A stretch of 32,112 nucleotides of DNA from Clostridiales bacterium (lineage in GTDB: Bacteria; Bacillota; Clostridia; Lachnospirales; JAITVM01), in the NCBI GenBank assembly GCA_031285815.1, contig JAITVM010000075.1, forward strand, positions 1 through 32,112, written 5' to 3'. The position numbers were made by a program, and so were the translations under genes. Below, one piece after another: positions 5,032 to 23,594 of this stretch; within the stretch, counting starts at the first letter, position 1; each line of letters opens with the position of its first letter. A model generated the notes under the pieces. It was not told where the DNA came from and did not search any database. It worked only from the letters and a program-made list of their open reading frames with translations.

Positions 5032-5069
5032 CCTCTTTTTTATATTTTTTTATTTTTGTACAGAGAAAT

Positions 5070-5201: not shown

Positions 5202-5390
5202 ATTATATACCCTCTGTTTTCCAGTTTCAATAAATCTATGGATAACAAAACCAGATTTTTTGATTCAGGTAACAATAGCCATTTTTATATTTAATAAAAA
5301 GCCGGGTAATTACGATAAATTTAATATAACTTATTATTCTTAGTTATGAATTAGTTTTAAATTTAATTAAGATAGTGGGGTATTTAAATA

Positions 5391-6103: not shown

Positions 6104-6124
6104 TTAAGATAGTGGGGTGCCTAA

Positions 6125-6850: not shown

Positions 6851-6930
6851 CAACTATTTATTTAAAATTAATTCATAACAAAAGGGGCTATCTCGCATAT
6901 CAAGACAGCCCCAGGTAACAATTTTAAATT

Positions 6931-8370: not shown

Positions 8371-8722
8371 GGCCTTCGATAATTTGCCTTAATTCTTCAG
8401 CCTGGCTTTGGGACAATTTTTTATTTCCTATAAATGACGCAAGGAATAAAGGCAAGGACCCGCCAAATGTATCTTCAACAAAGCTCCGGCTTTGGCCTGC
8501 AAAATATTCTTCACGCATCATAATGGCGGAGACAATAGAATTATTATTTTGGATAACCCCCTTGTTACATACCCTTTTTAAAATAGTGTATGTGGTAGTG
8601 CGTTTCCAGCCGAGAAGCTTTTCTGCCGCCTTTATAAGCTCCGCAGAAGTTACTGGCCCATCCGCCCAAATAATATCCGCAAGCTTTAATTCCGATTTAG
8701 ATAGTTTTTGAATTTCTGGCAT
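8345..8722 (-). CDS. BlaI/MecI/CopY-family transcriptional repressor
   Basis: 125 aa. Winged-helix N-terminus (SELKLADIIWADGPVTSAELIK...WKRTTTYTILKRVCNKG). SD AAGGAGGTG. Overlaps the M56 gene. Confidence 0.9.
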   Translation of the reverse strand: MPEIQKLSKSELKLADIIWADGPVTSAELIKAAEKLLGWKRTTTYTILKRVCNKGVIQNNNSIVSAIMMREEYFAGQSRSFVEDTFGGSLPLFLASFIGNKKLSQSQAEELRQIIEGHDGGVSNG

Positions 8723-9014: not shown

Positions 9015-9770
9015 CTATTTTAAACGGTTATTTGCTTTTATAAGTTCGCTTAGCGAAACATCAGGGTTACGCCAACGCTTGCCGCTTTTTTCGTTTTTTA
9101 AATGTATTGCATTCTTGGGGCATAAATGCACACACGCTAAACAAGCTTCGCAATGGCCTCCAAAATGCACTTTGCCTTTTACTTCAATATTTTTTGCAGG
9201 GCATACTTTTTCGCAGGTTCCGCATTTAGTGCAACCCGAATTGACGATATAGCCCTTAGCCCCTTCTAATGCGGAGGTAAAAACTTTTAATATGGAAGCC
9301 AATGCCCTCATTAATATAGATGCTTTTGCCTGTAATTTTATCCTATTTTTTATATCAGCGGCTATTTTCGCTGTTTTTTCCTCTACCCGCTTTTTAGGCA
9401 TTTTTTGTATTTCTGCTTCTATCTCAAAAACTGGCAGGTAATTATCCAGCATAAGCAGGCTGTTGGCATAATCAAAGCGGTACCCGCGCTTTTGGGCTAA
9501 TTTTTGTACGTTGTACATACAAGCCCCGTCCATATTCCCATAAGTGCCAATAGCAAAGGTGTAATCAGCTTCTAAAGTTATTTTATTCAAAAAACCGCTG
9601 ACCATTTTGGGGGGCGCAGTACTGTAAATAGGGAAAACTAGCCCAATCACATCATCTTTATACTGTGTTTTGGAATCATTTATTACTTGTGGGATAGAAA
9701 TTAGGTTGCCGCCAAATTGTTTGGCCACAGCCAGAGAATTGCCCGTTGCAGAAAAAAAGAATATTGTCAT
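9015..9770 (-). CDS. EFR1-type flavodoxin-like protein fused to a 2x[4Fe-4S] ferredoxin domain
   Basis: N-terminus MTIFFFSATGNSLAVAKQ. C-terminus has CTKCGTCEKVCP and CEACLACVHLCP. Start set at the ATG at 9770 (SD AAAGGGG) rather than the ORF-track 9791. Confidence 0.85.
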   Translation of the reverse strand: MTIFFFSATGNSLAVAKQFGGNLISIPQVINDSKTQYKDDVIGLVFPIYSTAPPKMVSGFLNKITLEADYTFAIGTYGNMDGACMYNVQKLAQKRGYRFDYANSLLMLDNYLPVFEIEAEIQKMPKKRVEEKTAKIAADIKNRIKLQAKASILMRALASILKVFTSALEGAKGYIVNSGCTKCGTCEKVCPAKNIEVKGKVHFGGHCEACLACVHLCPKNAIHLKNEKSGKRWRNPDVSLSELIKANNRLK

Positions 9771-10037
9771 AGAATTAACCCCTTTAGGCAAGTGCCTTAT
9801 ATTATTTTTTGAATAATTTTGGTTTTAATTGTGGTGGCGGTTTTTCAATTTGCATGACAGCACTGGGGTGCTGTATTAAAACATGCTGGATTTTTATTGA
9901 ATTTTTATTTCACTGGCTATAACGAAGGTACATCAAGCCTTTTTAACTAAATTGCTATACTTATATTATAATATCGTTCAATCTATTAGCATAGTATCCA
10001 AATTTTCCTTGTACTAAAATTCGGGCTATTTTAGTAC

Positions 10038-10065
10038 AAAAAAAGCTGGAATTAGCACGCCAGCT
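10038..10065 (-). terminator. Rho-independent terminator of the DeoR gene
   Basis: On the minus strand: agctgg-cgtgctaatt-ccagct followed by T7, immediately after the stop. A second perfect 12-bp hairpin (10009-10039) follows. Confidence 0.8.
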
Positions 10066-10066
10066 T

Positions 10067-10831
10067 TTACTTTGGGAAAAGGCATTTAATATTATTTTTT
10101 TCAAAATAATCAAGCCAAGCTTCCCCAGGGTGTTTATCGGTAACGATAATATCTATTGCTTTAATATTTTCGATAACCGAAAACGCCTTAATATTAAATT
10201 TTGAAGAATCTACGGCAAGTACCGCGCATTGTGAGGATTGTATCATAGCCTCTTTGCAGAGGGCAAATTCTTCCCTTGCGTCTGTCGGGCCTATTTCCAT
10301 ATCCAGCCCCTTGCATGAAATAATAGCTTTTTCAGCATAGAACCTATTAATATCAGTTACCGCCTTTTGCCCGGTCAGCGCTAAATATCCTTCATTCAGG
10401 TTTCCGCCTGTTGAAACAATATCCCAGCCTGATACATCTGACAATTCTATAAGTACCTCTATAGAATTTGTTATAACGGTTAAGCATTGCTTTTTCTTTA
10501 TTGCTTTAGCGATAAAAACAGAAGTCGTGCTTGCATCTAAAAAAATATGTTCGCCGTTTTCAATAAGCCCGCATATTATTTCAGCGATTTTTTGCTTCCC
10601 GGATACGTTCCTTTTCTTCCTAACATTAAAAGGCAGTTCAATATTGGCGGCTTCATTTAATATTGCGCCGCCATAACTTTTTATAACTAAACCGCTGTTA
10701 TGGAGTTTTTCTAAATCCCGGCGGATTGTTTCTTCTGTAACATTATAAATAAGGCTTAATTCGCCTACAGTTACTTTTTTTTGTTCCTGCAGCTTCATTA
10801 AAATTGAATTTCTTCTTTCCAGAGCCAGCAT
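10067..10831 (-). CDS. DeoR-family transcriptional regulator (HTH plus DeoR C-terminal sugar-phosphate sensor domain)
   Basis: N-terminus RRNSILMKLQEQKKVTVGELSLIYNVTEETIRRDLEKL. C-terminal domain with LDASTT and TNS motifs. Confidence 0.9.
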   Translation of the reverse strand: MLALERRNSILMKLQEQKKVTVGELSLIYNVTEETIRRDLEKLHNSGLVIKSYGGAILNEAANIELPFNVRKKRNVSGKQKIAEIICGLIENGEHIFLDASTTSVFIAKAIKKKQCLTVITNSIEVLIELSDVSGWDIVSTGGNLNEGYLALTGQKAVTDINRFYAEKAIISCKGLDMEIGPTDAREEFALCKEAMIQSSQCAVLAVDSSKFNIKAFSVIENIKAIDIIVTDKHPGEAWLDYFEKNNIKCLFPK

Positions 10832-10907
10832 ATTTTATAACTGCTTACTAAAATATATAATGGTACGGCTATATTATTCTAGCTTGCAGTAACCCACCCC
10901 TTTTTTA

Positions 10908-11447
10908 CTATAATAAAACCCGTTTTAATTTTTCATCTGGATGCGCGATTACGCACGAATCCAAATACATACCGGTTTGGGCATCTTTTGCTTTTTCAAT
11001 GGCAGCTGTAACGGCGGCGACCTCGCCGGTTATAACCATAAAAGATTTGCCGCACATACCTTTAGCAACACGTATTTCTATTAAATCTACAATGGCTGTC
11101 TTTGCAGCCGTATCAGCCGCAACAATGATTGACGTGGCGTCATATGTTTCTAATATGCCTACAGCAGAAACTTCTTCTATATCAGCTGTGCCGTAAATGG
11201 CCGGCATAATGCTTTCATGGGGGTTGCCCAGGACAAAAGAATTTATCAATTGTTCGCCAAATTGTTTGGCTACATCGGCCGCCGCATTAACCTCGCTTAA
11301 GCCGCCGGTAATAATAGCGATATACTTTCCCGGGCAAACGGTTTGGGCTTCTACGATTTCGATATTTGCCGCTTTTACCATAGCATCTAAAGCCATAATG
11401 CCAGTAGCCACAGTTTTATATTCTACCATACCAATAGCCTTGCTCAT
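10908..11447 (-). CDS. pduT: BMC-T tandem-domain shell protein, PduT-like
   Basis: Two fused BMC domains in 179 aa. Cys38 in TVCPGKY sits at the position of the PduT [4Fe-4S] ligand. ATGA overlap with the upstream gene. Confidence 0.88.
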   Translation of the reverse strand: MSKAIGMVEYKTVATGIMALDAMVKAANIEIVEAQTVCPGKYIAIITGGLSEVNAAADVAKQFGEQLINSFVLGNPHESIMPAIYGTADIEEVSAVGILETYDATSIIVAADTAAKTAIVDLIEIRVAKGMCGKSFMVITGEVAAVTAAIEKAKDAQTGMYLDSCVIAHPDEKLKRVLL

Positions 11448-12787
11448 TTAACCCCACCCCTTTTGCCGCTTCTTTTTATTTCTATAAAATTATCGTTAAC
11501 GCATGTTACTTCCCCATCAATAGAAGCATGTAGTGCTACACTTAAACCTTCCGCAGGCTTCGCTACCATTTGGCCCGTTTTAACATAATCCCCGGCCGAA
11601 ACTATTGGTATTGGTATTGCCCCAATATGTTGCCTTAATAATATTTTTACGTTATTTGTATCGAGTACGCCATCAGCAAAATAGGCATTGCCAGAATATT
11701 TTGAAAGGCCAAGCCTGCCCTCCAGCCTTTTTTCCGGTACTTTCCTGTATGCCCGCCAAGGTTTCACGCCAGGGTGTGCAATATTTTTTGGCATGGGTGC
11801 CCCGGCTTTTTTTAAACCGTCTTTATATGCCGCAATCAGTGAGCACGGCGAAAGGCCTTGTGGGCAAGCATACATTTCACATACCCCACAGGAGCTGCAG
11901 AAAAATGTATTTAAAAACACATTCCTATCACGAAAATCTTGATTAGAAGCCGAGCGCATAAAAAGATGCGGCTCTATCGGATGGCCTAGCGCATGCCTTG
12001 GGCAGAGCCCCGTACACATTTGGCACTGGCAGCAGGCCGAAGCGGCCCTTTTTAAATCAATAGAGAGGTTGCGTTTTTTAGACCGTATTAAATAATGGCT
12101 ATCCGGTAGTACAAGGATAGCATTTGTAGTTTTAGTAATTGGGGCTTGCCCCGGTTTAATTTCGCCCATCATAGGCCCGCCAACTAAATAAGTATAATTG
12201 CCTTTTACGCCGGCAGAAGAAGCTACATCACCTATAGCCATGCCAATCGGGGCACGTGTAGTCCTGGGGCCCCCTACTTCGCCAACAATGGTCACAAGCT
12301 TATCAATAACAGGCTTTTGTTTCTGTACACATTGATAAACGTTATATACCGTCTCCACATTTAAAACAATAATATTTTTTTCGATAGGTATGCCGCCTGG
12401 GGATATAACTATGCCCAGGGCTTCATAAATTAATATAATTTCATCGCCAACAGGGTAAACATTATCAAGCAAATGCAAACGTATGTTTGGAAATGCGCCA
12501 ATATATTGGCCTATTGCGCTGATTGCTTTATCGTAGCCTTTTTTTATCCCTATAACAATTTCTGGCGCTTCAATAATTTCTGCTATTAATGAAAGCGACT
12601 GCAAAATTTCATGGGCCTCTTTTTCTAATAATTGTTTATGTAACGATAGTAATGGCTCACATTCGGCGCAGTTCAATATTAAATATTTAACGCCTTTAGC
12701 TAATTTTGCATATGTGGGGAACCCTGCGCCGCCTGCCCCAACTACGCCGCCATCCTGCAGCAGATTTTTTAGGTTGCCTATATCCAT
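11444..12787 (-). CDS. pduS: PduS-like / RnfC-NuoF-like flavin and Fe-S oxidoreductase
   Basis: GAGGAGFPT motif. Two 4Fe-4S motifs (CQCQMCTGLCP, CSSCGVCEMYACP). 447 aa. Confidence 0.88.
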   Translation of the reverse strand: MDIGNLKNLLQDGGVVGAGGAGFPTYAKLAKGVKYLILNCAECEPLLSLHKQLLEKEAHEILQSLSLIAEIIEAPEIVIGIKKGYDKAISAIGQYIGAFPNIRLHLLDNVYPVGDEIILIYEALGIVISPGGIPIEKNIIVLNVETVYNVYQCVQKQKPVIDKLVTIVGEVGGPRTTRAPIGMAIGDVASSAGVKGNYTYLVGGPMMGEIKPGQAPITKTTNAILVLPDSHYLIRSKKRNLSIDLKRAASACCQCQMCTGLCPRHALGHPIEPHLFMRSASNQDFRDRNVFLNTFFCSSCGVCEMYACPQGLSPCSLIAAYKDGLKKAGAPMPKNIAHPGVKPWRAYRKVPEKRLEGRLGLSKYSGNAYFADGVLDTNNVKILLRQHIGAIPIPIVSAGDYVKTGQMVAKPAEGLSVALHASIDGEVTCVNDNFIEIKRSGKRGGVK

Positions 12788-12793
12788 AATTTT

Positions 12794-13045
12794 TTACCCC
12801 AAGCTACTTGGTTCATCAACAATACCCACAATAGCAGCATCTACAGGCGCATCGGCTAGGTTCCCGGCTTTTCTTGCAGCACTGCCAATAACCACTAAGA
12901 CATAGTCGCCTATCCCGGCGCCAATATTATCAACAGCAACTATTTTGCTTTTATCAAGAAGTTCAACAATAGTAAATTTACTGCCTACCAATTTTTCATT
13001 TTTTCTTGTAGATACTACGCTACCTTTAACTTTGCCTAGCAACAT
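12794..13045 (-). CDS. BMC-P pentameric vertex protein (EutN/PduN/CcmL family)
   Basis: 83 aa: MLLGKVKGSVVSTRKNEKLVGSKF...VAVDNIGAGIGDYVLV. Confidence 0.9.
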   Translation of the reverse strand: MLLGKVKGSVVSTRKNEKLVGSKFTIVELLDKSKIVAVDNIGAGIGDYVLVVIGSAARKAGNLADAPVDAAIVGIVDEPSSLG

Positions 13046-13074
13046 ATTTGCGGGCCCCCTTTTGTTAGTTTGTT

Positions 13075-13725
13075 TTAGCTTTTAAAGAACAGGGCTACTT
13101 TATCCCCGGTTTTAGCCCGGCAGGCATTAGCTTCATCTGTATCTATATGCATTTCTAAAGTAAAGCTTTCGTCTACCCTTATTTTCACATCATTAAATAT
13201 AAGGCCCTTTTCATAGTCTGCATGGACTGAGACAAAATCGCCATCCTTAAGCCCGGCCGCTAATGCATCGGCGGGTGGCATATGTATATGCCTTTTCGCT
13301 ACTATCATACCTTCTTCTAAATAAATAGCCCCTTTGGGCCCAATTATTGTAACCGGGGCGGAGCCTTTAATATCCCCGGATTCGCGGAGCGGTGCATTGA
13401 CACCTAGCTTAACGGCGTCTGTATCAGATATTTCTACCTGGGTAAAATTTCGGGTAGGCCCTAATACGCGGATATTTTCGATTGCGCGTAATTTTAGACC
13501 AACAATTGTTACTTTCTCGTTTGCGGCGAATTGGCCGCCCATTAATGTTTTTGCCTTTGTCAGGCTATAGCCCGGCCCAAATAGAATTTCAACATGCTCT
13601 TGTTTTAAGTGTACATGCCTGGCAGAAACACCAATAGGGGCCATTAGGCTTTTACGGCCCCCCTGCTTTTCACGTATAGCTTTTACTACTAAATCAGCAA
13701 TCTCATTAATATCTATTTTATCCAT
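13075..13725 (-). CDS. pduL: PduL-type phosphotransacylase with N-terminal encapsulation-peptide-like helix
   Basis: GVSARHVHL and RHIHM repeat motifs typical of PduL. N-terminal helix INEIADLVVKAIREKQ followed by a linker. Confidence 0.9.
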   Translation of the reverse strand: MDKIDINEIADLVVKAIREKQGGRKSLMAPIGVSARHVHLKQEHVEILFGPGYSLTKAKTLMGGQFAANEKVTIVGLKLRAIENIRVLGPTRNFTQVEISDTDAVKLGVNAPLRESGDIKGSAPVTIIGPKGAIYLEEGMIVAKRHIHMPPADALAAGLKDGDFVSVHADYEKGLIFNDVKIRVDESFTLEMHIDTDEANACRAKTGDKVALFFKS

Positions 13726-13808
13726 ACTTACACCCGGTTTCTTTTTAATTATAAAAAAATTAAGGGCAGTACGCCCGCGCTAGCAATGGGCACGGGCGTT
13801 TCAATTTC

Positions 13809-14204
13809 TTATTCTGTTGGAAGTATAGCCTCTACATCAGAGTGAGGGCGTGGTATTACATGGGTAGCAACCAATTCGCCAAAACGCTGTGCACTATTTG
13901 CACCAGCTTCAACAGCTGATTTAACTGCGCCAACATCACCGCGCACCATAACTGTTACTAAACCTGAACCTATCCTTTCGGTCCCAATTAAAACTACATT
14001 GGCAGCTTTGCACATAGCGTCGGCAGCCTCTACGGCGGCTACAAGGCCCCTTGTTTCAATCATACCAAGTGCTTCTTTAGACATTTGCTTTTCCCCCTTC
14101 TTTGCTTTTTGTTTTGATGCAACTTTTTTAGCGCCTGCTTTAAGTGCAGCGCTTTGATCTATTTCCGCCACACTTTCATTGGCTGTGTTATCATCTTCTA
14201 TCAA
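13809..14204 (-). CDS. BMC-H shell protein (PduA-like). Start is ambiguous: long form from TTG 14204, short 91-aa form from ATG 14084.
   Basis: The core [24 protein letters not shown]... closely parallels the 14518-14793 paralogue. The 40-aa Ala/Lys-rich extension is encoded upstream in frame. Both candidate starts have a GGGGG-type SD. Confidence 0.88.
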
Positions 14205-14506
14205 AATTTTATGCCCCCTTGCTTTGTGAATTTTCGGGCACTCTCGTTTACTAAATAAACAATTTCTTCATGGGGGCTTGCCAAGACGCCGCTGGCAACC
14301 GGTTTTTTTATCCCATTGGATTTTACCGCCTCGATTGCCGAACTAACATCTGACACACTTCCCTGGATTACTATTGTTACTAAACGCCCGCCAAGCTTCT
14401 TTTCCCAGGTAACGAAACCCACGCTGGAAGCTTTGCACATAATGTCAATTGCATCTAAAGCTGCAACTATGCCCGTGATTTCGATAAACCCGTAAGCGTT
14501 ACCCAT
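14201..14506 (-). CDS. Divergent BMC-H shell protein (101 aa)
   Basis: The BMC fold signature reads [24 protein letters not shown]...[20 protein letters not shown]. Confidence 0.85.
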
Positions 14507-14517
14507 GTTGGGCCCCC

Positions 14518-14793
14518 TTAAGCTTTAGGCAGGATTTTTTCTACATCTGCATGGGGCCTTGGGATAACATGGACCGCAACTAATTCCCCTAAACGCTTGG
14601 CCGCCTCGGCACCGCTTTCAACAGCGGCTTTAACTGCGCCAACATCACCGCGTACCATAACTGTTACCAACCCTGAACCTATTTTTTCTGTACCGATTAA
14701 AGATACCTCTGCAGATTTAGTCATTGCATCAGCCGCTTCGATTGCAGCTGTAAGCCCCCTTGTTTCAACTAACCCTAATGCTTCTTTAGACAT
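14518..14793 (-). CDS. BMC-H shell protein, PduA/PduJ-like (91 aa)
   Basis: The BMC-H signature reads [58 protein letters not shown]. Confidence 0.93.
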
Positions 14794-14824
14794 GTTGTTT
14801 CCTCCTCAAATATTCTATATAGTT

Positions 14825-15139
14825 TCAATTCTTATCAAATGCATCTATTATTAACATTTTTTCTGTATCTTTAGTTGGGTTCGGGATTATATGGCTCTGG
14901 ACTATGCCGGTTATACCTTTTGCGGTGTTAATGCCTGCTTCCATAGCCGCTTCAACATCTGAAATGCCGCCCCTAAATTTAATGGTCACAAGGAGCGGGA
15001 CCTCCAGCTCATCCGCATTGGCAGGTTTGTTTTTATCAAATTTTTCAAGGCGTACCCGTCCGGCTTTGGCCCCTGCATCTGCCGCCATAAAGGCGCAAAC
15101 CAATCCGTATACTTCTAAAATGCCTACTGCCTCGCCCAT
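14825..15139 (-). CDS. Divergent BMC-H shell protein with an internal insertion (104 aa)
   Basis: BMC-like GILEVYGLVCAFMAADAGAKAG...TIKFRGGISDVEAAMEAG, with the insert EKFDKNKPANADELEVP. Confidence 0.8.
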   Translation of the reverse strand: MGEAVGILEVYGLVCAFMAADAGAKAGRVRLEKFDKNKPANADELEVPLLVTIKFRGGISDVEAAMEAGINTAKGITGIVQSHIIPNPTKDTEKMLIIDAFDKN

Positions 15140-15176
15140 AATAGGTGGCCCCTTTCAAATTGTAAAAAATTTAGCC

Positions 15177-16364
15177 TTAATTATTTATTATAGCTATCTT
15201 TAAGCCTTTCATCGATAAATTCATCTGATGGGCCTCGTTAATTTTATCCAGTGGGTATGTATGGGTAATTAATTTATCCAAAGGCAGCCCAATTTTTTTT
15301 GCGCTTACAAGGAAATCAAATGTTGTTGCATAATCCCTTAATGTATACACCCAAGACCCGACTGTTGTTATTTCTTTAGCACAGATATCAAAATGTGGGT
15401 TTATTGACGCATCGCCACCATTTATAAAAAACCCAAGCTCACAGAGCCCGCCGCCGTTGCGGATAAATTTATAAATATTTGAGTGCGCCATTGGCGACCC
15501 TGTGCATTGGAATGCAAAATCTGCCAAGCTGCCGCCAAATTTTTCTTTAACAGCGTTTGTTAGGGCTTCTATACCGGAATGGGATTTGAAATTGACAACA
15601 TCCGTAGCCCCTAATTCTTTAGCAAACCCTAGCCTATTTTCTTCACCGTCGATAGCTACAATATTGGCAATGCCCATTGTTTTAAGTATAGCTATGCAAA
15701 TCAAGCCGATAGGGCCACAGCCTTGGACGGCAACCCTGCTGTTAAACCGGAGTATGCCCGTAGATTTTGCGCGCTCTACAGCATGGATTAGGACCGCACA
15801 GGGCTCTATTAATATCCGTGAATAAAGGTCTAGGTGGCTAACGTTAAATATAGTAGAGCCGCCCCTAATAACTATATAATCTGCAAACCATCCGTTTAAA
15901 TGCTTGTCGTCGTCAGGCAGCAAACCATAGACATCTGCCCCGCCGACATTTTGCTTATTTAGGTCAAACATAGTTATATCTGGGTTATCTTTAAATATCA
16001 TACAAGAGACAACCTTATCGCCAACGTGTAAATCTTTGCCTGCGCTGTCTTTCTTAACGCCCTTGCCCATTTTAATTATTTCGCCGGTGCCTTCATGGCC
16101 CAATACAACAGGTATTAAATTAAATGGGTCATTCTTATACTCATGAGCATCAGTCCCGCAAACCCCGCAGCCTTCGACTTTAACTAAAATATCGCCATCG
16201 CCTAATTCAGGGATAGGGTATTCTTTAATATCATAATGCTCTAATTTTGTTAACATGGCTACCCTGGAAACATTTTTTGCGCCACTGTTTTCAAAATTTT
16301 CGCCTTTGCCTGCTAATTGGGCAAGGACCTGCTTAACGATTTCATCAATACGTGCGTCATTCAT
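15177..16364 (-). CDS. Zinc-dependent (MDR-family) alcohol dehydrogenase with N-terminal encapsulation-peptide-like extension
   Basis: GCGVCGTDAHE and GHEGTGEI zinc motifs; GCGPIGL Rossmann motif. The N-terminal helix IDEIVKQVLAQLAG plus a linker of about 15 aa precede the catalytic domain. Confidence 0.88.
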   Translation of the reverse strand: MNDARIDEIVKQVLAQLAGKGENFENSGAKNVSRVAMLTKLEHYDIKEYPIPELGDGDILVKVEGCGVCGTDAHEYKNDPFNLIPVVLGHEGTGEIIKMGKGVKKDSAGKDLHVGDKVVSCMIFKDNPDITMFDLNKQNVGGADVYGLLPDDDKHLNGWFADYIVIRGGSTIFNVSHLDLYSRILIEPCAVLIHAVERAKSTGILRFNSRVAVQGCGPIGLICIAILKTMGIANIVAIDGEENRLGFAKELGATDVVNFKSHSGIEALTNAVKEKFGGSLADFAFQCTGSPMAHSNIYKFIRNGGGLCELGFFINGGDASINPHFDICAKEITTVGSWVYTLRDYATTFDFLVSAKKIGLPLDKLITHTYPLDKINEAHQMNLSMKGLKIAIINN

Positions 16365-16391
16365 ATCATATACGGCCTCCTGTCTATATAT

Positions 16392-17783
16392 TTAACGGAT
16401 GCAAAAGCTATCCGCCATGACACATTGCCTACGTTTTGTAAAGGTGCTTGCCTTTGTTAAGCCTTCGCCTGTCCTGCTGGCTATTGTGAAGGTACAAAAG
16501 CCTTCGCCGCCGAAACCTATTGCCGCATATGATGGCGCGTTTTTTACAAGTATCGCTGTGTCAATTTCTTTTGCGTATCTGGTAATATTGTCAATGTTTT
16601 TTGAATGTATATGTGCTGAGTGGCGGTTCCCATGTTCTAACCAGATTGCTTTTTCTAAAGCATCTTCAAAATCTTCCGCCCTGACAAGGCCCAAAATAGG
16701 CATCATTAATTCTTCGGATATAAGCGGGTGCCCTTTTTCCCCTTCAAATATAATACAACGGGCCCCCTCCGGCGCACTGGCCCCAATCATATCAAGAAGT
16801 GCTATAGCACTGCGCCCCACACAAGCGCGGTTTAATGTGCCATTCTTCATCACAAGGGAGGATAGCGCTTTTATTTCTTCGTTTGAAGCTAAATAGCAGC
16901 CCTGCTCTGTTACCATATAATGAATTAATTCATCAATGGCACTGCTTACCACAACTACTTCTTTTTCTGCAATGCAAGGCAGGTTGTTATCAAATGTGCA
17001 GCCGTTTACAATATCGCCTGCGGCTTTCCTTAAATCCGCTGTTTTATCTACCAGTGCGGGGGGGTTGCCTGCGCCTGCGCCTATCCCGCGTTTGCCTGAA
17101 GATAGTACGGCTGTTACTACACCGGGGCCGCCTGTTGCGGATATTAACGGGATATCTGGGTGGTTGAGCATTATATTGCTTGATTCTAAACTTGGGTTTT
17201 TAACAGAGCATACAATATTATCCGGCCCGCCGGCTTCCCGGGATGCTTTGTTAATCATCCGGATAGCAAAAGCAGAGGTTTCCGCGGCAGCCGGGTGGGT
17301 GTTAAATACAACAGTATTCCCGCCGGCTATCATACCGATCGAATTGCAGATAACTGTTTCGCTGGGGTTTGTGCATGGCGTTATCGAGCCGATTACGCCA
17401 AAGGGCCCCATTTCTGTTAATGTAAGGCCTCGGTCCCCAGACCAAGCTATTGTTGTAATGTCCTCGGTGCCGGGGGTTTTTTCCGCAACTAATTTATGTT
17501 TTAGTATTTTATGCCCAATATTGCCCATGCCTGTTTCTTCAACAGCCATTTGTGCAAGGGTTCCCGCGTTTTCTATAGTAAGTTTACGTATATTTGAAAT
17601 AATTTTTTCACGCTGGTCCATTGAAAGCCGCTTAACTATAGCTTGTGCTTTTTTTGCTGATTCGATTGCGTCATTCATATCTGAAAAAATACCTGGGCTT
17701 CCGTTTGTGTTTTGTTGAGGCCCCGGTGCTTGTAAATTTTTTAAAACATTGGCAACTATGCCACGAATTAATTCTTCATCCAA
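16392..17783 (-). CDS. pduP: CoA-acylating aldehyde dehydrogenase (PduP/EutE-like) with N-terminal encapsulation peptide
   Basis: 463 aa with catalytic Cys in NNLPCIAEKE. N-terminal helix EELIRGIVANVLKNLQ followed by a P/G/Q-rich linker. TTG start with SD GAGGGGG; 16-nt overlap with the upstream gene. Confidence 0.9.
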   Translation of the reverse strand: MDEELIRGIVANVLKNLQAPGPQQNTNGSPGIFSDMNDAIESAKKAQAIVKRLSMDQREKIISNIRKLTIENAGTLAQMAVEETGMGNIGHKILKHKLVAEKTPGTEDITTIAWSGDRGLTLTEMGPFGVIGSITPCTNPSETVICNSIGMIAGGNTVVFNTHPAAAETSAFAIRMINKASREAGGPDNIVCSVKNPSLESSNIMLNHPDIPLISATGGPGVVTAVLSSGKRGIGAGAGNPPALVDKTADLRKAAGDIVNGCTFDNNLPCIAEKEVVVVSSAIDELIHYMVTEQGCYLASNEEIKALSSLVMKNGTLNRACVGRSAIALLDMIGASAPEGARCIIFEGEKGHPLISEELMMPILGLVRAEDFEDALEKAIWLEHGNRHSAHIHSKNIDNITRYAKEIDTAILVKNAPSYAAIGFGGEGFCTFTIASRTGEGLTKASTFTKRRQCVMADSFCIR

Positions 17784-18253
17784 GAAAGTACCCCCTCAAT
17801 TATTGAGCTGCCATACACCGCCAAAGCCGTATCCTCTTCAACTGTGCCGCCGCTTACCCCAATGGCGCCGATTATTGTGCCATTTACTATAAGTGGCTCG
17901 CCGCCGCCAAATATTACAACCTTGCCGTTATTTGTATGCTGGATGCCATAAAGCGGCCCGCCTGGCTGGCTTAATTCACCTAATTTTTTTGTCGGCATTT
18001 TAAAACCGGCGGACGTAAAAGTTTTGTTGAGTGCTATATCAAAGCTGCCTATATAAGAGCCGTCCATACAATGTATTGCTACAGGCCTGGCTGAAGCATC
18101 TGAAACGGCTATGGCCACTGAAACCCCCATACGCGTAGCTTCTGATTCTACTTTTTCTATTAAGGCAGCAGCAAGCTTTAAAGTCATTTTATTTCTCAAA
18201 ACTTCGCGTACGGCTGAATCTATAATTTTATTTATATGGTTATCTTCAATCAT
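17768..18253 (-). CDS. DUF336 / GlcG / PduO-C-terminal-like (haem-binding family) protein with N-terminal encapsulation-peptide-like helix
   Basis: The core reads LAAALIEKVESEATRMGVSVAIAVSDASARPVA...GGGEPLIVNGTIIGAIGVSGGTVEEDTALA. The N-terminal helix is INKIIDSAVREVLRNK. Confidence 0.8.
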   Translation of the reverse strand: MIEDNHINKIIDSAVREVLRNKMTLKLAAALIEKVESEATRMGVSVAIAVSDASARPVAIHCMDGSYIGSFDIALNKTFTSAGFKMPTKKLGELSQPGGPLYGIQHTNNGKVVIFGGGEPLIVNGTIIGAIGVSGGTVEEDTALAVYGSSIIEGVLSWMKN

Positions 18254-18267
18254 AAGCAGCCGGCCAA

Positions 18268-19065
18268 TTATAATTTCATCTGTTCGAGGACTTTTTTAGT
18301 TACAGACTCGACAATATATGAAAGGTCATCCCCTTCTTTTGGTTCTGTAGCTTTATTTCCGCAATTATGGCAGTTAAGACCTGTTTTGTTTAGGCACATA
18401 TCAGCAGGGTGCTTTCCGCTTATGCCCATTTTGCGCCTTATTTCATAAAGCTTTTCTACAGTTGCTTTATCAAACTCTTTTGGCCCGCCAAGCATTTTTG
18501 ATTTGTATAGCAATTCTGCATAAAATTCAACAGATTCCATTTTATAATACGCTGATAACAGGTCGCCGCCCCAAGTAAGTGCCCCATGGCTTTCTAAAAG
18601 GACAGCGTCATAATAAGGGAGGTATTTTTCTATATTGTCCGGTATCTCCATAGTTGATGGCGTACCATATTCGGCGATAGGCACACAGCCAAGGGTAATA
18701 ACGGCTTCCGGCATTATAGGCTGTGTAAGCGGTATGCCTGCTATTGCGAAGCTGGTTGCGAAGGAAGGGTGGGCATGTACTACTGCGTTAACATCCGGCC
18801 TTTTTTCGTATACCCTCATGTGCATTTTTATTTCAGAAGAAGGCTTGTAGCCTTTGTTTGCTTGTATAACATTGCCTTTTGCGTCAACCTTGCAAATATA
18901 CTCTGGTGTCATGAAGCCCTTAGAAACACCGGTTGGCGTACACAAAAATTCGTTGCTGCTTATTTTTACGGAGAAATTGCCGTCGTTGGCGGCAACCATG
19001 TTTCGGGCATAAATCCTTTTGCCTATTTCACACATCATTTTTTTTATTTCGTATTCGTTTTGCAT
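18268..19065 (-). CDS. Class II aldolase (fuculose-/rhamnulose-1-phosphate aldolase-like) with Cys-rich linker and C-terminal encapsulation-peptide-like helix
   Basis: Aldolase_II core (GNFSVK, HAHP, ESHGALTWG). The C-terminal extension CLNKTGLNCHNCGN is followed by LSYIVESVTKKVLEQM. Confidence 0.88.
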   Translation of the reverse strand: MQNEYEIKKMMCEIGKRIYARNMVAANDGNFSVKISSNEFLCTPTGVSKGFMTPEYICKVDAKGNVIQANKGYKPSSEIKMHMRVYEKRPDVNAVVHAHPSFATSFAIAGIPLTQPIMPEAVITLGCVPIAEYGTPSTMEIPDNIEKYLPYYDAVLLESHGALTWGGDLLSAYYKMESVEFYAELLYKSKMLGGPKEFDKATVEKLYEIRRKMGISGKHPADMCLNKTGLNCHNCGNKATEPKEGDDLSYIVESVTKKVLEQMKL

Positions 19066-19086
19066 TCTGGTTTTCCCCTTCTTTTA

Positions 19087-19443
19087 TTAAGTATTTGAAA
19101 TGGGGCATACTGAAAACCCCAATTTTTCGCTTAAATAATCTAATATAGCAAGCGTCGCCGCTTCAACTTCTGAAACTGAGCCTGTTATAAAAAGTGACCC
19201 GCTTTGCATGTCAGCAAAGCCGACGCGCACCCCAGAAGCTTTTATTGCGATATCCGCCATGATTATAGATGTTTCTGCCGGGCATATTGTCATTACCCCA
19301 ATTGCCCCGCCTTCTGCCGGTTCAAAGCCTAATATCTCAAACAGGGATTTGTCAGGGTTTGCGATTATATGTGCTAAGGTGATCTGCCTTCCCGGCACAG
19401 ATTCCTGTATTATCCTCTGCTTAAAATTATTTTCCCCATTCAT
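19087..19443 (-). CDS. pduU: Circularly permuted BMC shell protein (PduU/EutS-like)
   Basis: 118 aa: RIIQESVPGRQITLAHIIANPD...GAIGVMTICPAETSIIMADIAIKASGV...ITGSVSEVEAA. Confidence 0.88.
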   Translation of the reverse strand: MNGENNFKQRIIQESVPGRQITLAHIIANPDKSLFEILGFEPAEGGAIGVMTICPAETSIIMADIAIKASGVRVGFADMQSGSLFITGSVSEVEAATLAILDYLSEKLGFSVCPISNT

Positions 19444-19446
19444 AAG

Positions 19447-20244
19447 TTAACCACCTATCTGGCACAAAAGGCCAAATTCTTCTTCAACCAGCGTTTTAAG
19501 GCCTAACATATATTCGTTTGTTGGGGGTATGGCCCCCTCCATTTCATAGGCCCGCCCCAGCCCCTTATACTTATCCTGGCCAAGCCTATGGTAAGGCAGT
19601 AAATATATTTTTTTCACATTAGGGAGTAGGGCCGCAAATTTTGCTATCTCCATAATTTCTTCTTTGGTACTGTTAAAACCGGGTATAACCGGTACCCTGA
19701 TAAAAAGGCCAAACTTATTGTTTTTTGATGACTCTGCTATTTTTCTTGCGTTCTCAAGTATCAGCTGGTTACCCATTCCGGTAAATTCTTTGTGTTTGCC
19801 CCCATCTATATGTTTAATATCCAATAAGTATTGGTCCAAATATGGAAGTATTTCTTCAATCGTTTCGAATGGGGCCCCACCCATACTCTCTATAGCCGTG
19901 GTTAAGCCCAAAGATTTTGCACCTTTAAGCAGCGCCAAAGAAAATTCGGGCTGGCAGAGGCTTTCGCCCCCGGATAATGTTAGCCCGCCGCCAGAGCGCC
20001 TGTAATAAGCCCGGTCCTTAGCAACAACTTCTATGGCCTCCCTGGCGGTTATATCCCTTCCGATAATTTCGCGGCTTCCATTAACGGACATAGTTTCAAT
20101 ATCAAAATTTTGCGACTCCGGGTTACAACACCATTTACAGCGGAGCATACAGCCTTTTAAAAATACAATTGTCCGGATGCCGGCCCCGTCATGTATTGAA
20201 AACCGCTGTATGTCAAATATCCGCCCCTTTGTTTCAAGATACAT
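19447..20244 (-). CDS. Glycyl-radical enzyme activating enzyme (radical SAM), short PflA-like form
   Basis: CMLRCKWC gives the CX3CX2C motif; GGE motif in TLSGGESL. It is 265 aa, with no additional Cys cluster between the SAM cluster and the GGE motif. Confidence 0.92.
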   Translation of the reverse strand: MYLETKGRIFDIQRFSIHDGAGIRTIVFLKGCMLRCKWCCNPESQNFDIETMSVNGSREIIGRDITAREAIEVVAKDRAYYRRSGGGLTLSGGESLCQPEFSLALLKGAKSLGLTTAIESMGGAPFETIEEILPYLDQYLLDIKHIDGGKHKEFTGMGNQLILENARKIAESSKNNKFGLFIRVPVIPGFNSTKEEIMEIAKFAALLPNVKKIYLLPYHRLGQDKYKGLGRAYEMEGAIPPTNEYMLGLKTLVEEEFGLLCQIGG

Positions 20245-20300
20245 AAAACACCCCTAGCATAATATAAATAAACCTGGCTAATCCGGTTTAGGCTTAAAGA

Positions 20301-22820
20301 TTATATACCTTGTTCTGTCCGGCTAATAATGTCATCCTGCAAGGGCCTGGATAAGGTTGTAAACAATGCACTGTAGCCGGCAACACGTACAATCAGATGT
20401 TTATAATTTTCCGGATGTTGCTGGGCGTCCAGCAATGTGGCCCTATCAACTACATTAAATTGCAGATGGCTGCCCTTTTGGTCAAAATATGACCGGATAA
20501 AAGCCACAAAATTATTTAGGCCTTCCTCGCCGGTTAAAGCGCTTGGATGAAATTTCATGTTAAACAAGGTACCGTTTGAAGCTATCCCGTGGTCCAGGCG
20601 GGCTACGGAATTAGCAGAGGCTGTTGGGCCGTTAACATCTTTTCCTGCAGAGGGTGAAACCCCATCTGCAATTGGTGTGCCGGCCAAGCGGCCGTCTGGC
20701 GTCGCGCCTGTTTGGGCCCCTAATGGCACATTAGCCGAAACTGGGTACAAGCCGGCTTGAAAAATACCGCCCCTAGGGTTTTTATAATGCTCCAAAGGTT
20801 TTGTGTAGGTGTAGGCGGCATCCCTTGCTAAAAAATCTACATCTGCTATATCATTCCCATACTTAGGGAGTTCATCAATCCATGTCAATAATGTTTCATA
20901 TTTTTCATTTATTTCTTTTAACCCGCCTGAATTAATAATACTGGCTACGAGCCCTGAAATATTTTTTTCAGAAAACTCTTGCCCTGAATTTTTAACCGTA
21001 TGGGCAACTTCAGCAATTATGGCAGGTATTGCCTGGCCGTATAAATCTTTGCCGTAATTAAGCCCTAAAGCCTGTTTAAATTCTGCCAGGGTGATTTTTT
21101 TATCCTCATATACCAATTTTTTTATTGCATACAAGGAATCCGCCACATTGGCTACCCCAAAGCCCTGAGGCCCTGAAAAGTTATAAAGGGCGCCGCCTTC
21201 TTGTACACTTTTGCCCCTTTTAATGCAATCATTAACCATAGAAGACAAGAATGGCAGCGGGCACCTATCGCAATGTGCGGTATCTATAGAGTTAATGGCA
21301 TTTACTAATAACGAAATATTATAAGACATCTGGCTCTTATAAGCATTATAAAATTTTTCGAATGTATCAAATGATTCTACCCCACCGGTTTCAATGCTTA
21401 TTAGCTCGCCCTTATCGGAGCCGTTAGAAAAAACTAACTCTAAAGGCCGGCACATATTAAAGAACGCAGCGTCATGCCACCCGTCAGTTTTTCCGGCTTT
21501 TTGCGGCTCAACACAGCCGATGATATTATAGGTACGGGCATCCTTAAGTGTTAAGCCCCTATTCATAAGGGACGGGATAATAACCTCGTCATTATAATAA
21601 GCTGGCAAACCAATGCCTGTCCTTGTTAGCTCAGCCGCTTTTACTAGCAGCTCATGGGGGGAGCCATTCCAAACGCGGACTGATAATGACGGCTGAGGCA
21701 AAAATACATGTATAGAGGCTTCAATACACATAAATGATAAATCATTTGTAACGTCAAGCCCATCTTCGTCTTGCCCGCCGACAATTAAATTTTGAAACAA
21801 GCTATAGCCCGCAAAACCCTCAGCACTGGCCGCATCGCGGCATTTATTAAGGTCGTTTAATTTTATCCAGATACAATCAATTAATTCTTGTGCAAACTCT
21901 TTCGTAATAGCCCCTTTATCTATGTCTGATTTGTAATAAGGGTACATATATTGGTCAAAGCGGCCTGGTGAAATTGAATGGCCGCTGGATTCTAGCTGTA
22001 TAAGTTGATGGGTAAACCAAAAACATTGGCATGCCCCGTAAAAATTTGTTACACCATTAGCCAGTGAATTTTTACAAACCTCAGAAATTTTTATTAGCTC
22101 TGCTTCCCTAGGCGTGCCTTTGTAGCTACCTGCCATTTCCGCGGCTAATTCAGAATAGCGCAAAGCATAGTTAATAGCCGATTCGCAGGATATAATAACG
22201 CTTTTTAAAAAAGAATGCCTTTTGGCATAATCCATATCACCAACATTAAGTACTGCGATTTCTTTTTGGGCTTCTTCAATTATGCCGTTAAAACCTATTT
22301 CCAATATTTTTTCGTATTCTACAGTTATATGGCCAATGCCGTTATAATAATAATTTCCTGGTGTAAAAATATTATGCGCCATTGCCTTCTTTGCTTCTGG
22401 CGACATATATGCTTCTGCCAGTTCGCTGGTTGTTTTGCCCTTCCAATAGGTGTTTGCTGATTTTAAATCCAGCTTTGTTTGGCCAGAAATATAAAAAGGG
22501 TCGGCTTTCCTGTGCTCTACGGTATCAAACTCTTCCTCGAGCCATTCAAATGAATACTCGGGGTAGGTTTGGCACCCCCTAGGCGCAATGGTTGAGCTTC
22601 CGACTATCAATTCACCATCACGGATAATAATAGGTATATTAGATAAAATATGAGAGAAGGCTTCTGCCCTCCTAATTATTAAAGGCTGCCCTTCTGTCTT
22701 TTTATAAGATTCAGTGATAAGCAGCGCCCTTGCCGGTTCTATTTCCGGCATATTTTTATACAAATCTTCGGTTAGCCTAGTAACCCTTTCCGGCTTCTCA
22801 ATAGAATATTTTTTTTCCAT
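20301..22820 (-). CDS. Glycyl radical enzyme of the diol-dehydratase type (predicted B12-independent 1,2-propanediol dehydratase)
   Basis: 839 aa. Glycyl radical motif RVAGYS (Gly815), thiyl loop GCVEP (Cys436, Glu438), His164 in GIGH, and Asp450. Confidence 0.9.
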   Translation of the reverse strand: MEKKYSIEKPERVTRLTEDLYKNMPEIEPARALLITESYKKTEGQPLIIRRAEAFSHILSNIPIIIRDGELIVGSSTIAPRGCQTYPEYSFEWLEEEFDTVEHRKADPFYISGQTKLDLKSANTYWKGKTTSELAEAYMSPEAKKAMAHNIFTPGNYYYNGIGHITVEYEKILEIGFNGIIEEAQKEIAVLNVGDMDYAKRHSFLKSVIISCESAINYALRYSELAAEMAGSYKGTPREAELIKISEVCKNSLANGVTNFYGACQCFWFTHQLIQLESSGHSISPGRFDQYMYPYYKSDIDKGAITKEFAQELIDCIWIKLNDLNKCRDAASAEGFAGYSLFQNLIVGGQDEDGLDVTNDLSFMCIEASIHVFLPQPSLSVRVWNGSPHELLVKAAELTRTGIGLPAYYNDEVIIPSLMNRGLTLKDARTYNIIGCVEPQKAGKTDGWHDAAFFNMCRPLELVFSNGSDKGELISIETGGVESFDTFEKFYNAYKSQMSYNISLLVNAINSIDTAHCDRCPLPFLSSMVNDCIKRGKSVQEGGALYNFSGPQGFGVANVADSLYAIKKLVYEDKKITLAEFKQALGLNYGKDLYGQAIPAIIAEVAHTVKNSGQEFSEKNISGLVASIINSGGLKEINEKYETLLTWIDELPKYGNDIADVDFLARDAAYTYTKPLEHYKNPRGGIFQAGLYPVSANVPLGAQTGATPDGRLAGTPIADGVSPSAGKDVNGPTASANSVARLDHGIASNGTLFNMKFHPSALTGEEGLNNFVAFIRSYFDQKGSHLQFNVVDRATLLDAQQHPENYKHLIVRVAGYSALFTTLSRPLQDDIISRTEQGI

Positions 22821-22871
22821 AACCCGCCTGGCTTTCTAATATAAATTAACAATATGGATACTATTTTTCGT

Positions 22872-22889
22872 AAAAACAACACAATACAA
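22872..22889. promoter_or_regulatory. Downstream arm of an 18-bp perfect inverted repeat (candidate operator, in the 5' UTR of the BMC operon)
   Basis: aaaaacaacacaatacaa is the exact reverse complement of 22954-22971. Confidence 0.6.
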
Positions 22890-22913
22890 CAACAATGATA
22901 TTATTCAATATCA

Positions 22914-22942
22914 ATTATATACTTGTTTTTGTTTGTTGTCAA
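22914..22942 (-). promoter_or_regulatory. Consensus sigma-A promoter of the BMC operon
   Basis: On the minus strand: TTGACA (22942-22937), exactly 17 nt, TATAAT (22919-22914). It lies about 95 nt upstream of the GRE ATG. Confidence 0.8.
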
Positions 22943-22953
22943 TTGGAACAACT

Positions 22954-22971
22954 TTGTATTGTGTTGTTTTT
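22954..22971. promoter_or_regulatory. Upstream arm of the 18-bp perfect inverted repeat (candidate operator, 11 nt upstream of the -35)
   Basis: ttgtattgtgttgttttt is the exact reverse complement of 22872-22889. Confidence 0.6.
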
Positions 22972-23123: not shown

Positions 23124-23594
23124 TTGAAAACATTAATAATTTACGCATCAAAATATGGTGCGACAGCGGAAATAGCAAAACGTATTGGGGATAAAATAAA
23201 TGGGTCTTCCCTATATGACATTAAGGGGGGCAATTGCCCGCCTTTAGATGGGTTTGATAACATAATCATTGGCAGCCCGCTTTATGTTGGCAATGTACGT
23301 AAGGAGATAAAAGAATTTATAGCTAAAAACGAAAGTATCTTAAAAGGGAAAAAATTTGCTTTATTTTTAAGCGGATGTGAACCCAATAAGGGGGCGGAGT
23401 ATTTTAAAAATAATTTCCCTGAAGGGGTTTTACAGGCAGCTAAAGCTGCGGTTTTTGTTGGCGGGTTATATGACCCTAAAAAATCAGGGTTTTTAGATAA
23501 GCTTCTGCTTAAAATAGCAGCTAAGAAATCGGATTATTTTGAAAATATTGATGGCTCAAAGATTGACAAATTAGTTGAAGCAATGGGTTCGTGA
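23124..23594 (+). CDS. Flavodoxin-domain protein (156 aa)
   Basis: N-terminus MKTLIIYASKYGATAEIAKRIG, followed by IIGSPLYVG. TTG start with AAAGGG 8 nt upstream. Divergent from the BMC operon. Confidence 0.8.
   Translation: MKTLIIYASKYGATAEIAKRIGDKINGSSLYDIKGGNCPPLDGFDNIIIGSPLYVGNVRKEIKEFIAKNESILKGKKFALFLSGCEPNKGAEYFKNNFPEGVLQAAKAAVFVGGLYDPKKSGFLDKLLLKIAAKKSDYFENIDGSKIDKLVEAMGS

Follow-up and report, generated by a model that had tools for sequence, protein, structure and literature searches.

A probable GRM5-type glycyl-radical-enzyme microcompartment operon in an uncultured Clostridiales bacterium

In a 32,112-nt stretch of a Clostridiales genome (contig JAITVM010000075.1 in its entirety; the whole stretch is referred to here as the window), we analyzed a minus-strand locus of 15 co-directional genes and an adjoining regulator gene. 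Judged from its sequence, the locus is very probably a glycyl-radical-enzyme microcompartment (GRM) operon of the GRM5 type, from an uncultured, Lachnospiraceae-like bacterium. The locus shows every sequence-readable hallmark of GRM5 given in PMC6325248 and PMC4207490. It agrees with published GRM5 loci in gene content, in gene order and in its signature enzyme, and thus backs the class proposed in a first-pass annotation of the same DNA. The locus is an intact, rather compact copy of a well-known, very widespread class. Because the next-best glycyl-radical enzymes (GREs) are only ~72% identical, the lineage is somewhat divergent; the system is not. New points are limited to details of the control region and to the layout of the operon.

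Gene content and class of the locus

Profile searches (Pfam and NCBIfam) assigned domains to all 16 proteins. The parts list, gene count and coordinates given by the first-pass annotation proved right, with 15 minus-strand open reading frames (ORFs) and a downstream DeoR gene each carrying the domains it had named. Gaps between neighboring operon genes, read off the coordinates, range from a 16-nt overlap to 83 nt. In the order of transcription, the genes are as follows (aa, amino acids; BMC, bacterial microcompartment; SAM, S-adenosylmethionine; ADH, alcohol dehydrogenase).

10067-22971, minus: whole locus, operon of 15 co-directional genes plus the DeoR regulator gene (ORFs 10067-22820)
20301-22820, minus: GRE, predicted 1,2-propanediol dehydratase, 839 aa; PF02901 (PFL-like, 776 bits) and PF01228 (Gly_radical, 126 bits)
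19447-20244, minus: GRE-activating radical-SAM enzyme, 265 aa, CX3CX2C motif; Radical_SAM
19087-19443, minus: PduU/EutS-type circularly permuted BMC-H, 118 aa; BMC, with the EutS model covered end to end
18268-19065, minus: class II aldolase (fuculose/rhamnulose-1-phosphate type), 265 aa; PF00596, 171 bits
17768-18253, minus: DUF336 (HbpS/GlcG/EfgA-like) protein, 161 aa; PF03928
16392-17783, minus: CoA-acylating (propion)aldehyde dehydrogenase, 463 aa; PF00171, and PRK15398 at 639 bits against a cut-off of 403
15177-16364, minus: Zn-dependent medium-chain ADH, 395 aa; PF08240 and PF00107
14825-15139, minus: divergent BMC-H, 104 aa; BMC
14518-14793, minus: PduA/EutM-like BMC-H, 91 aa; BMC
14201-14506, minus: divergent BMC-H, 101 aa; BMC
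13809-14204, minus: fourth BMC-H, PduA/EutM-like, 131 aa in a long form or 91 aa in a short form; BMC
13075-13725, minus: PduL phosphate propanoyltransferase, 216 aa; PTAC, and NF011652 at 256 bits against a cut-off of 209
12794-13045, minus: BMC-P (EutN/CcmL) pentameric vertex protein, 83 aa; EutN_CcmL, PF03319
11444-12787, minus: PduS-like flavin/Fe-S oxidoreductase, 447 aa; Complex1_51K, Fer4 (Fer4_17) and RnfC_N
10908-11447, minus: PduT-like tandem BMC-T, 179 aa; two BMC domains
10067-10831, minus: DeoR-family transcription regulator, 254 aa; HTH_DeoR and DeoRC

The locus thus encodes both a metabolosome core (acylating aldehyde dehydrogenase and PduL) and a BMC-H/BMC-T/BMC-P shell, the latter comprising four BMC-H, one PduU-like permuted BMC-H, one PduT-like BMC-T and one BMC-P. 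Homologues of PduS and PduT, a GRM5 trait, are encoded as well. The only ADH at the locus is of the Zn type, which replaces the Fe-ADH of other metabolosomes and is a defining trait of GRM5 (PMC6325248, PMC3557285).

The GRE is the signature enzyme. A search of the PDB returned the diol dehydratase of Roseburia inulinivorans (5i2a/5i2g) as its best solved relative, at 1291 bits, with glycerol dehydratase at 999 bits and CutC at ~500 bits. Alignment to 5i2a is ungapped over 832 columns (residues 7-838, 66% identity) and pairs Cys436 and Glu438 of the CXE motif, and the radical-site Gly815, with the catalytic C438, E440 and G817. Glycerol dehydratase aligns in two pieces and therefore lacks an insertion of ~60 aa that the GRE carries at about residues 590-650; such an insertion is specific to microcompartment-associated propanediol dehydratases (PMC6325248). 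Enzymes of the CutC, HypD, IslA and HpfG types score far below the diol dehydratase, and the GRE reaches no NCBIfam equivalog cut-off of another GRE function, the HpfG, HypD and CutC scores lying far below theirs. The ranking of scores places the enzyme in the 1,2-propanediol dehydratase group, where the first-pass annotation had put it, rather than with CutC, HypD or IslA. A B12-dependent variant of the dehydratase was considered, but the window clearly carries the GRE form.

An identical GRE (P0001) is already on record at NCBI and JGI, annotated as 'glycyl radical protein' or 'formate C-acetyltransferase'. Three metagenome proteins from ENA (P0002-P0004, 943-1001 aa, ~70% identical) were considered as its closest relatives and set aside. 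Pairwise comparison revealed an internal duplication in P0002, and P0003 and P0004 show repeated segments; the duplications span roughly 100-160 residues and inflate the bit scores, which is why these proteins outscore relatives that are truly closer. They are probably assembly artefacts, not close relatives or fusions.

Features of the activase point in the same direction. In the NCBIfam test for a GRE and cognate activase beside shell genes, both TIGR01774 and TIGR02494 scored above their cut-offs. The activase is of the short form, with no match to Fer4 (PF00037), the family that defines the ferredoxin-like insertion, and its alignments to longer activase models skip ~40 profile positions past the CX3CX2C region. 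The insertion measures roughly 70 aa in other GRM activases; only those of GRM5 lack it (PMC6325248).

Related loci were collected by scanning species-representative genomes for the aldolase. At least 578 of 600 candidate stretches were confirmed, and the class is present in hundreds of species genomes. Our comparisons use the best 80 (L001-L080), almost all from Lachnospiraceae and allied Clostridia, including Blautia, Eisenbergiella, Acetatifactor, Suipraeoptans, Robinsoniella and Roseburia. When all window proteins were compared by tblastn, dozens of relatives showed the same gene order at 45-90% identity; recurring gene for gene in so many other genomes, the arrangement goes beyond chance. 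The most conserved gene is the BMC-H gene at 14518-14793, whose full-length matches are 76-90% identical, mostly 85-90%. In several loci (L058, from Robinsoniella peoriensis, and L074, L048, L055, L075, L009, L023 and L032), the block from aldolase to PduT was found, and no GRE or activase gene in the upstream sequence covered (up to 10 kb). The dehydratase of these loci may be encoded elsewhere, or they may represent a GRE-less variant.

Two published GRM5 loci allow a direct comparison. Cphy_1174-Cphy_1187 of Clostridium phytofermentans ISDg (PMC3557285) has the same order of GRE, activase, PduU-like protein, aldolase, aldehyde dehydrogenase, Zn-ADH, BMC-H, PduL, EutN, PduS, PduT and same-strand DeoR. 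Like the window, it lacks pduV and includes an N-terminally extended PduA-like BMC-H. The window differs in having four BMC-H genes rather than three, and a DUF336 gene between those for aldolase and aldehyde dehydrogenase. The fucose-inducible locus of R. inulinivorans A2-194 (5i2a/5i2g) has the same enzyme and shell set, and the Roseburia-type relatives sampled mostly carry DUF336. GRE and activase genes head the operon in the window and in C. phytofermentans, whereas Roseburia-type loci have them after the DeoR gene and usually carry an additional gene of ~150 aa after the pduU-like gene. Function, in the sense of induction, polyhedral bodies and propionate/propanol formation, is established for C. 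phytofermentans and R. inulinivorans (PMC6325248, PMC3557285). In the former, Cphy_1174-1187 are induced 15-87-fold on fucose or rhamnose and polyhedral bodies have been observed (PMC3557285). For the window, such induction, polyhedral bodies, and propanol and propionate production are predictions.

Other microcompartments resemble the locus in part. GRM3 and GRM4 (e.g. Rhodopseudomonas palustris BisB18) share a GRE with the insertion, the core of aldehyde dehydrogenase, PduL and ADH, and DUF336 (PMC6325248, PMC4207490); unlike the window, they lack an encapsulated aldolase and Zn-ADH, their activases carry the ferredoxin-like insertion, and many use GrpU. The Planctomycetes-Verrucomicrobia (PVM and PVM-like) organelles have a homologous class II aldolase with a C-terminal encapsulation peptide, entry by fuculose or rhamnulose phosphate, and a DeoR regulator, but they have no GRE, process lactaldehyde directly, are aerobic and build a different shell with more BMC-P. 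The Pdu system of Salmonella enterica shares PduU, PduT, PduS, PduL, PduP-like and PduN-like components and the logic of sequestering propionaldehyde, yet it relies on B12-dependent PduCDE, the Fe-type ADH PduQ, the PocR regulator and cobalamin recycling enzymes, all of them absent from the window.

Several points count against the GRM5 reading or narrow it. The source is a metagenome-assembled genome, and for substrate specificity, for induction and for the formation of an organelle the reading relies on homologues. The GRE is at most ~72-73% identical to any other database protein, and a 2026 review cautions that GRE eliminase annotations can be imprecise because of high shared sequence similarity. 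The first-pass annotation had called the system complete. This holds for the organelle module but not for the pathway: genes for fucose or rhamnose isomerase, kinase, mutarotase and transporter were not found in the remaining 19 kb of the 32-kb window, and sugar specificity is therefore inherited from homologues too.

The low identity of the GRE, 66% even to the characterized enzyme, and the difficulty of assigning eliminases from sequence would also fit a divergent-lineage enzyme that acts on some other substrate (glycerol, glycolaldehyde-derived ethylene glycol or a sulfonated diol), in an organelle that processes a different aldehyde. Class II FucA-type aldolases also cleave D-ribulose-1-phosphate to glycolaldehyde, which adds to that case. 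We nevertheless regard it as most improbable: propanediol dehydratase is the best match by a wide margin, the equivalog scores of HpfG, HypD and CutC are low, the ungapped alignment to the R. inulinivorans enzyme takes in the microcompartment-specific insertion, and the gene context is identical to that of experimentally studied loci.

Proposed pathway, cargo targeting and shell

The published GRM5 model fits the locus without modification, and the pathway can be drawn by analogy with characterized homologues. Cytosolic L-fuculose-1-phosphate or L-rhamnulose-1-phosphate, supplied by enzymes encoded outside the window, would be cleaved by the shell-targeted aldolase to dihydroxyacetone phosphate and L-lactaldehyde, which the Zn-ADH would reduce with NADH to (S)-1,2-propanediol. 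The GRE, once activated by the short radical-SAM activase, would convert this diol to propionaldehyde. The acylating aldehyde dehydrogenase would then form propionyl-CoA and regenerate NADH, and PduL would yield propionyl-phosphate and recycle CoA, with part of the propionaldehyde going to propanol. Four BMC-H, the PduU-like protein, the PduT-like Fe-S BMC-T and one BMC-P would build the shell, while PduS and PduT would carry electrons, plausibly for re-activation of the GRE.

Because reduction of lactaldehyde would use the NADH that propionaldehyde oxidation yields, the lumen would be redox-neutral without propanol formation. The final step of the first-pass pathway, in which propanol formation recycles cofactor, thus needs qualification. 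Some propanol is formed in the published model, but a redox-balanced lumen would not need it for internal cofactor recycling; we infer that it serves the redox balance of the whole cell. The ADH of GRM5 has been assigned as lactaldehyde reductase (PMC6325248) and also as propanol dehydrogenase, with PduS given the role of propanediol oxidoreductase (PMC3557285). The Zn-ADH of the window is a candidate for either activity or both.

Five of the proteins carry terminal amphipathic helices. In the aldolase, whose nearest solved structures are fuculose-phosphate aldolases, a Cys-rich linker at the C-terminus leads into the amphipathic encapsulation peptide DDLSYIVESVTKKVLEQMKL, and C-terminal peptides of this kind are known on such class II aldolases (PMC4594438). 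The remaining four are N-terminal: INKIIDSAVREVLR in the DUF336 protein, the encapsulation peptide ELIRGIVANVLKNL, with a P/G/Q-rich linker behind it, in the aldehyde dehydrogenase, the encapsulation-peptide-like RIDEIVKQVLAQLA in the Zn-ADH and the encapsulation peptide INEIADLVVKAIRE in PduL. Low-complexity linkers separate these helices from the catalytic domains. In tblastn comparisons, matches to relatives reach the helix-bearing termini of the aldolase, aldehyde dehydrogenase, Zn-ADH and PduL in nearly all loci, and that of DUF336 in about half. The aldolase and aldehyde dehydrogenase termini agree with published descriptions of encapsulation peptides. We predict that all five helices target their proteins to the lumen.

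These observations bear on whether the aldolase is the entry step. The locus could instead encode a plain 1,2-propanediol-utilization organelle of the GRM3/GRM4 kind, fed with free propanediol from other gut microbes, in which the aldolase is cytosolic or accessory. Propanediol-only GRMs do share the core of GRE, aldehyde dehydrogenase, PduL and ADH (PMC6325248), enzymes of the R. inulinivorans type use propanediol directly, and the window lacks the deoxyhexose genes. We consider this very unlikely, given that the aldolase is the defining marker of GRM5 (PMC6325248), that it has a conserved C-terminal amphipathic extension of the encapsulation-peptide kind (PMC4594438) and that its gene lies within the operon, behind a gap of just 21 nt. 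Moreover, some relatives have deoxyhexose genes next to the locus; L009, for example, carries rhamnulokinase and rhamnose isomerase genes upstream, along with a PduV/EutP gene ahead of the aldolase gene. The two uses are not exclusive, and a GRM5 organelle could take both propanediol and substrate derived from deoxyhexoses.

For the aldehyde dehydrogenase, a TTG start behind the Shine-Dalgarno sequence GAGGGGG gives a 16-nt overlap with the DUF336 gene. Its best solved relatives (4c3s/5dbv/5dru, 760 bits) we take to be the GRM5 aldehyde dehydrogenase of C. phytofermentans, the enzyme of PMC4762007. The PduS-like protein combines a GAGGAGFP nucleotide motif and two Cys-rich 4Fe-4S motifs with a C-terminal RnfC_N-type barrel (residues 378-433), and its nearest structures are RnfC subunits. 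RnfC structures align from their residue 122 onward to the N-terminal half of the protein, which suggests that its domain order is permuted relative to RnfC. The stop codon of this gene overlaps the start of the pduT-like gene. The product of the latter matches 3nwg and PduT (3n79) in the PDB, and its Cys38 presumably corresponds to the Fe-S ligand in the PduT pore.

Among the other shell proteins, the permuted BMC-H has PDB matches to 4axi, 3cgi (PduU) and EutS; none of its PDB matches is an entry named GrpU. The fourth BMC-H can be read in two forms. For the long form, the start codon is a TTG sharing bases with the stop of the gene before it (TTGA), which adds a Lys/Ala-rich N-terminal extension of 40 aa; for the short form, it is the ATG at 14084, preceded by the strong Shine-Dalgarno sequence GAAGGGGGA. 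Many relatives have an open frame for a similar extension, 'MAE.KK...KKEEKRM-QEALG', and share the internal Shine-Dalgarno sequence and ATG. Extensions of the last BMC-H (Lys/Ala/Thr-rich, low-complexity, 40-70 aa) occur in L002, L004, L013, L015, L023, L029-L032, L041 and L046. In Cphy_1182, resemblance to PduA is confined to residues 73-161 (PMC3557285). Both isoforms of the window protein may be made.

GRM5 organelles are a main route by which gut Lachnospiraceae turn fucose and rhamnose from host and diet into propionate and propanol, and one further copy adds little biology. A compact copy, with a single promoter, no pduV and all cargo-targeting helices readable, is nevertheless well suited as a template for expression in another host or for organelle engineering.

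Promoter, candidate operators and operon layout

The 303 nt upstream of the GRE gene hold a consensus promoter between the arms of an inverted repeat.

22954..22971, minus: O1, candidate operator, upstream arm of a perfect 18-nt inverted repeat, AAAAACAACACAATACAA on the operon strand
22914..22942, minus: sigma-70-type promoter, TTGACA-17 nt-TATAAT, 12/12 match, from a promoter scan
22872..22889, minus: O2, candidate operator, downstream arm of the repeat, TTGTATTGTGTTGTTTTT on the operon strand

This promoter was the sole 12/12 match in the 13.5 kb scanned; weaker matches were no commoner than in shuffled sequence. We propose that it would drive all 15 genes, with a predicted 5' untranslated region (UTR) of ~87 nt. 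No Rfam family reached threshold in the whole window, and hence no riboswitch or leader was found in the 5' UTR. O1 ends 12 nt upstream of the -35 hexamer, and O2 falls within the predicted 5' UTR. The outer edge of the repeat is position 22971, which the first-pass annotation had chosen as the end of the locus. The exact 18-mer is seen nowhere else in the window.

Relatives do not share the long repeat; what they keep is a 9-nt core and its phasing. Repeats matching at 15-16 of 16 positions occur in only four of them (L001, L025, L029 and L037) and are unrelated in sequence to that of the window. Of 55 related GRE upstream regions, 23 contain the core 9-mer AAAACAACA and 18 contain AAAACCACA, compared with a maximum of ~6 for any 9-mer in shuffled controls. 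Across 56 related loci, AAAAC[AC]ACA occurs 46 times within 250 nt upstream of GRE genes, with a second hotspot immediately before the aldolase gene and scarcely any copies elsewhere in the loci. Promoter matches of at least 11/12 are present in about 40 of 55 GRE upstream regions (17-nt spacer) and 40 of 79 aldolase upstream regions. Motif copies are phased at ~10.5 nt, one helical turn, lying about -17, -27, -38, -50, -60 and -70 from the -35 hexamer, and in relatives mostly share one orientation. In the window, the core of O1 begins 28 nt upstream of the start of the -35 hexamer, an offset class shared with relatives.

Which protein might bind these sites? The deoR gene starts 76 nt past the pduT-like gene on the same strand, a position conserved in relatives. 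On balance, the AAAAC[AC]ACA sites are probably operators of this co-located regulator. In the window, the promoter, which has no need of an activator, sits between two copies of opposite orientation, an arrangement that points to repression by occlusion or looping. The regulator would most likely repress the promoter through the two flanking arms containing AAAACAACA, and a phosphorylated deoxy-ketose would release it, although this effector is a guess. If the operator assignment is right, the regulon for deoxyhexose fermentation could be predicted across gut Clostridia.

Here too, some evidence pulls the other way. The regulator falls under every NCBIfam equivalog cut-off (AgaR, 165 bits against 260; SrlR, 150 against 350; FucR, 103 against 259), and by these scores it is a member of the DeoR family rather than an orthologue of the characterized FucR, AgaR, SrlR or GlpR. 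AAAAC[AC]ACA, sought upstream of deoR as a sign of autoregulation, is absent there in the window and not enriched there in relatives. We infer both the mode of regulation (repression versus activation) and the effector. The phased A-rich motif could also be, in part, curved DNA or an UP-element-like sequence and not a protein site.

An explanation that dispenses with operators altogether takes the 18-nt repeat to be the termini of a small insertion carrying the promoter, or to be cruciform or curved DNA, with regulation exerted elsewhere. That the exact 18-mer is unique in the window and the long perfect repeat not conserved would fit, and helix-phased A-tracts are a known feature of strong Gram-positive promoters. 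This seems unlikely to us, as the core 9-mer of each arm is enriched specifically upstream of GRE and aldolase genes in dozens of relatives, the core lies in the shared offset class, and the architecture of the repeat agrees with that predicted for sugar regulators of the DeoR family.

The layout of the operon is simpler than in most relatives. In these, an extra gene of ~150 aa lies past the pduU-like gene (a PduV/EutP homologue in L009, the sole locus scanned), and relatives have a regulatory gap of 100-250 nt ahead of the aldolase gene (e.g. L003, 9409-10001; L013, 203 nt). In most relatives, a second near-consensus promoter with 1-3 phased copies of AAAAC[AC]ACA lies upstream of the aldolase gene, so that the locus falls into two regulated units. 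In the window there is just the 21-nt gap, with no pduV-like gene and no internal promoter.

The DUF336 protein prompts a further, more speculative idea. Among solved structures, it is best matched by the formaldehyde sensor EfgA (6bws), and K77, S134 and D141 of the DUF336 protein align with the inferred EfgA ligand residues K57, S114 and D121, on our assumption that the PDB chain carries a 20-residue tag. A possible aldehyde link of microcompartment DUF336 proteins has already been noted by Bazurto et al. (PMC8153426). The protein might be a lumenal, aldehyde-binding sensor or buffer related to EfgA while, alongside, the phased AAAAC[AC]ACA arrays form an undescribed DeoR operator code of GRM5, represented here by a looping inverted pair; we hold this combination to be quite unlikely. 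Were it true, DUF336 would let the organelle monitor propionaldehyde or lactaldehyde from within, or would protect it against them.

Hairpins and flanking genes

Two hairpins were found at the ends of gene blocks.

13771..13799, minus: 10-bp G+C-rich stem-loop directly 3' of the last BMC-H gene, with a U-rich tract at 13751-13763
10037..10068, minus: intrinsic-terminator-like hairpin and U-run, starting from the deoR stop codon, at the end of the locus

The first lies in the 83 nt that separate pduL from the last BMC-H gene. An 87-nt stretch containing it folds at -28.2 kcal/mol (z = -3.55), and hairpins of -18 kcal/mol or lower are present in the equivalent gap of 35 of 56 relatives, versus 2 of 56 shuffled controls. 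In C. phytofermentans, induction falls from ~74-fold at the last BMC-H gene to 49-, 37-, 32- and 26-fold at the genes that follow (PMC3557285). This step-down fits a partial terminator or mRNA stabilizer, and by analogy the hairpin is a candidate for such an element, setting the ratio of shell to enzyme; it would probably lower expression from pduL to pduT. In the microcompartment papers that we read, we found no description of the conserved hairpin, of the promoter-linked candidate operator motif AAAAC[AC]ACA or of the Lys/Ala-rich BMC-H extension.

The locus is flanked by genes for a two-component system, an alpha/beta hydrolase, a BlaI/BlaR1 pair, flavodoxins, a MerR regulator, TrmO, a chemoreceptor and CstA. 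Its immediate neighbors are these.

23124-23594, plus: flavodoxin gene, divergent from the GRE promoter
23628-24443, plus: MerR/GyrI-like regulator gene, after the flavodoxin gene
9015-9791, minus: flavodoxin-ferredoxin fusion, downstream of deoR

The flavodoxin and the flavodoxin-ferredoxin fusion were considered as electron donors to the activase. No homologue of either lies beside any of the 80 related loci, and we therefore treat both as unrelated neighbors. Further out (1181-3375, 26491-29064 and 29466-30884) are an OmpR-type response regulator with a HAMP histidine kinase, a PAS/HAMP methyl-accepting chemotaxis protein and a CstA-like transporter, none with an evident link to the microcompartment. 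Positions 5000-7000 are very A+T-rich, at 26-27% G+C versus about 40% elsewhere, and the two ORFs there (5546-6103 and 6125-6850) have no Pfam match. The stretch adjoins genes for a BlaI/BlaR1-type repressor (8345-8722) and sensor (6931-8370), and may be foreign DNA.

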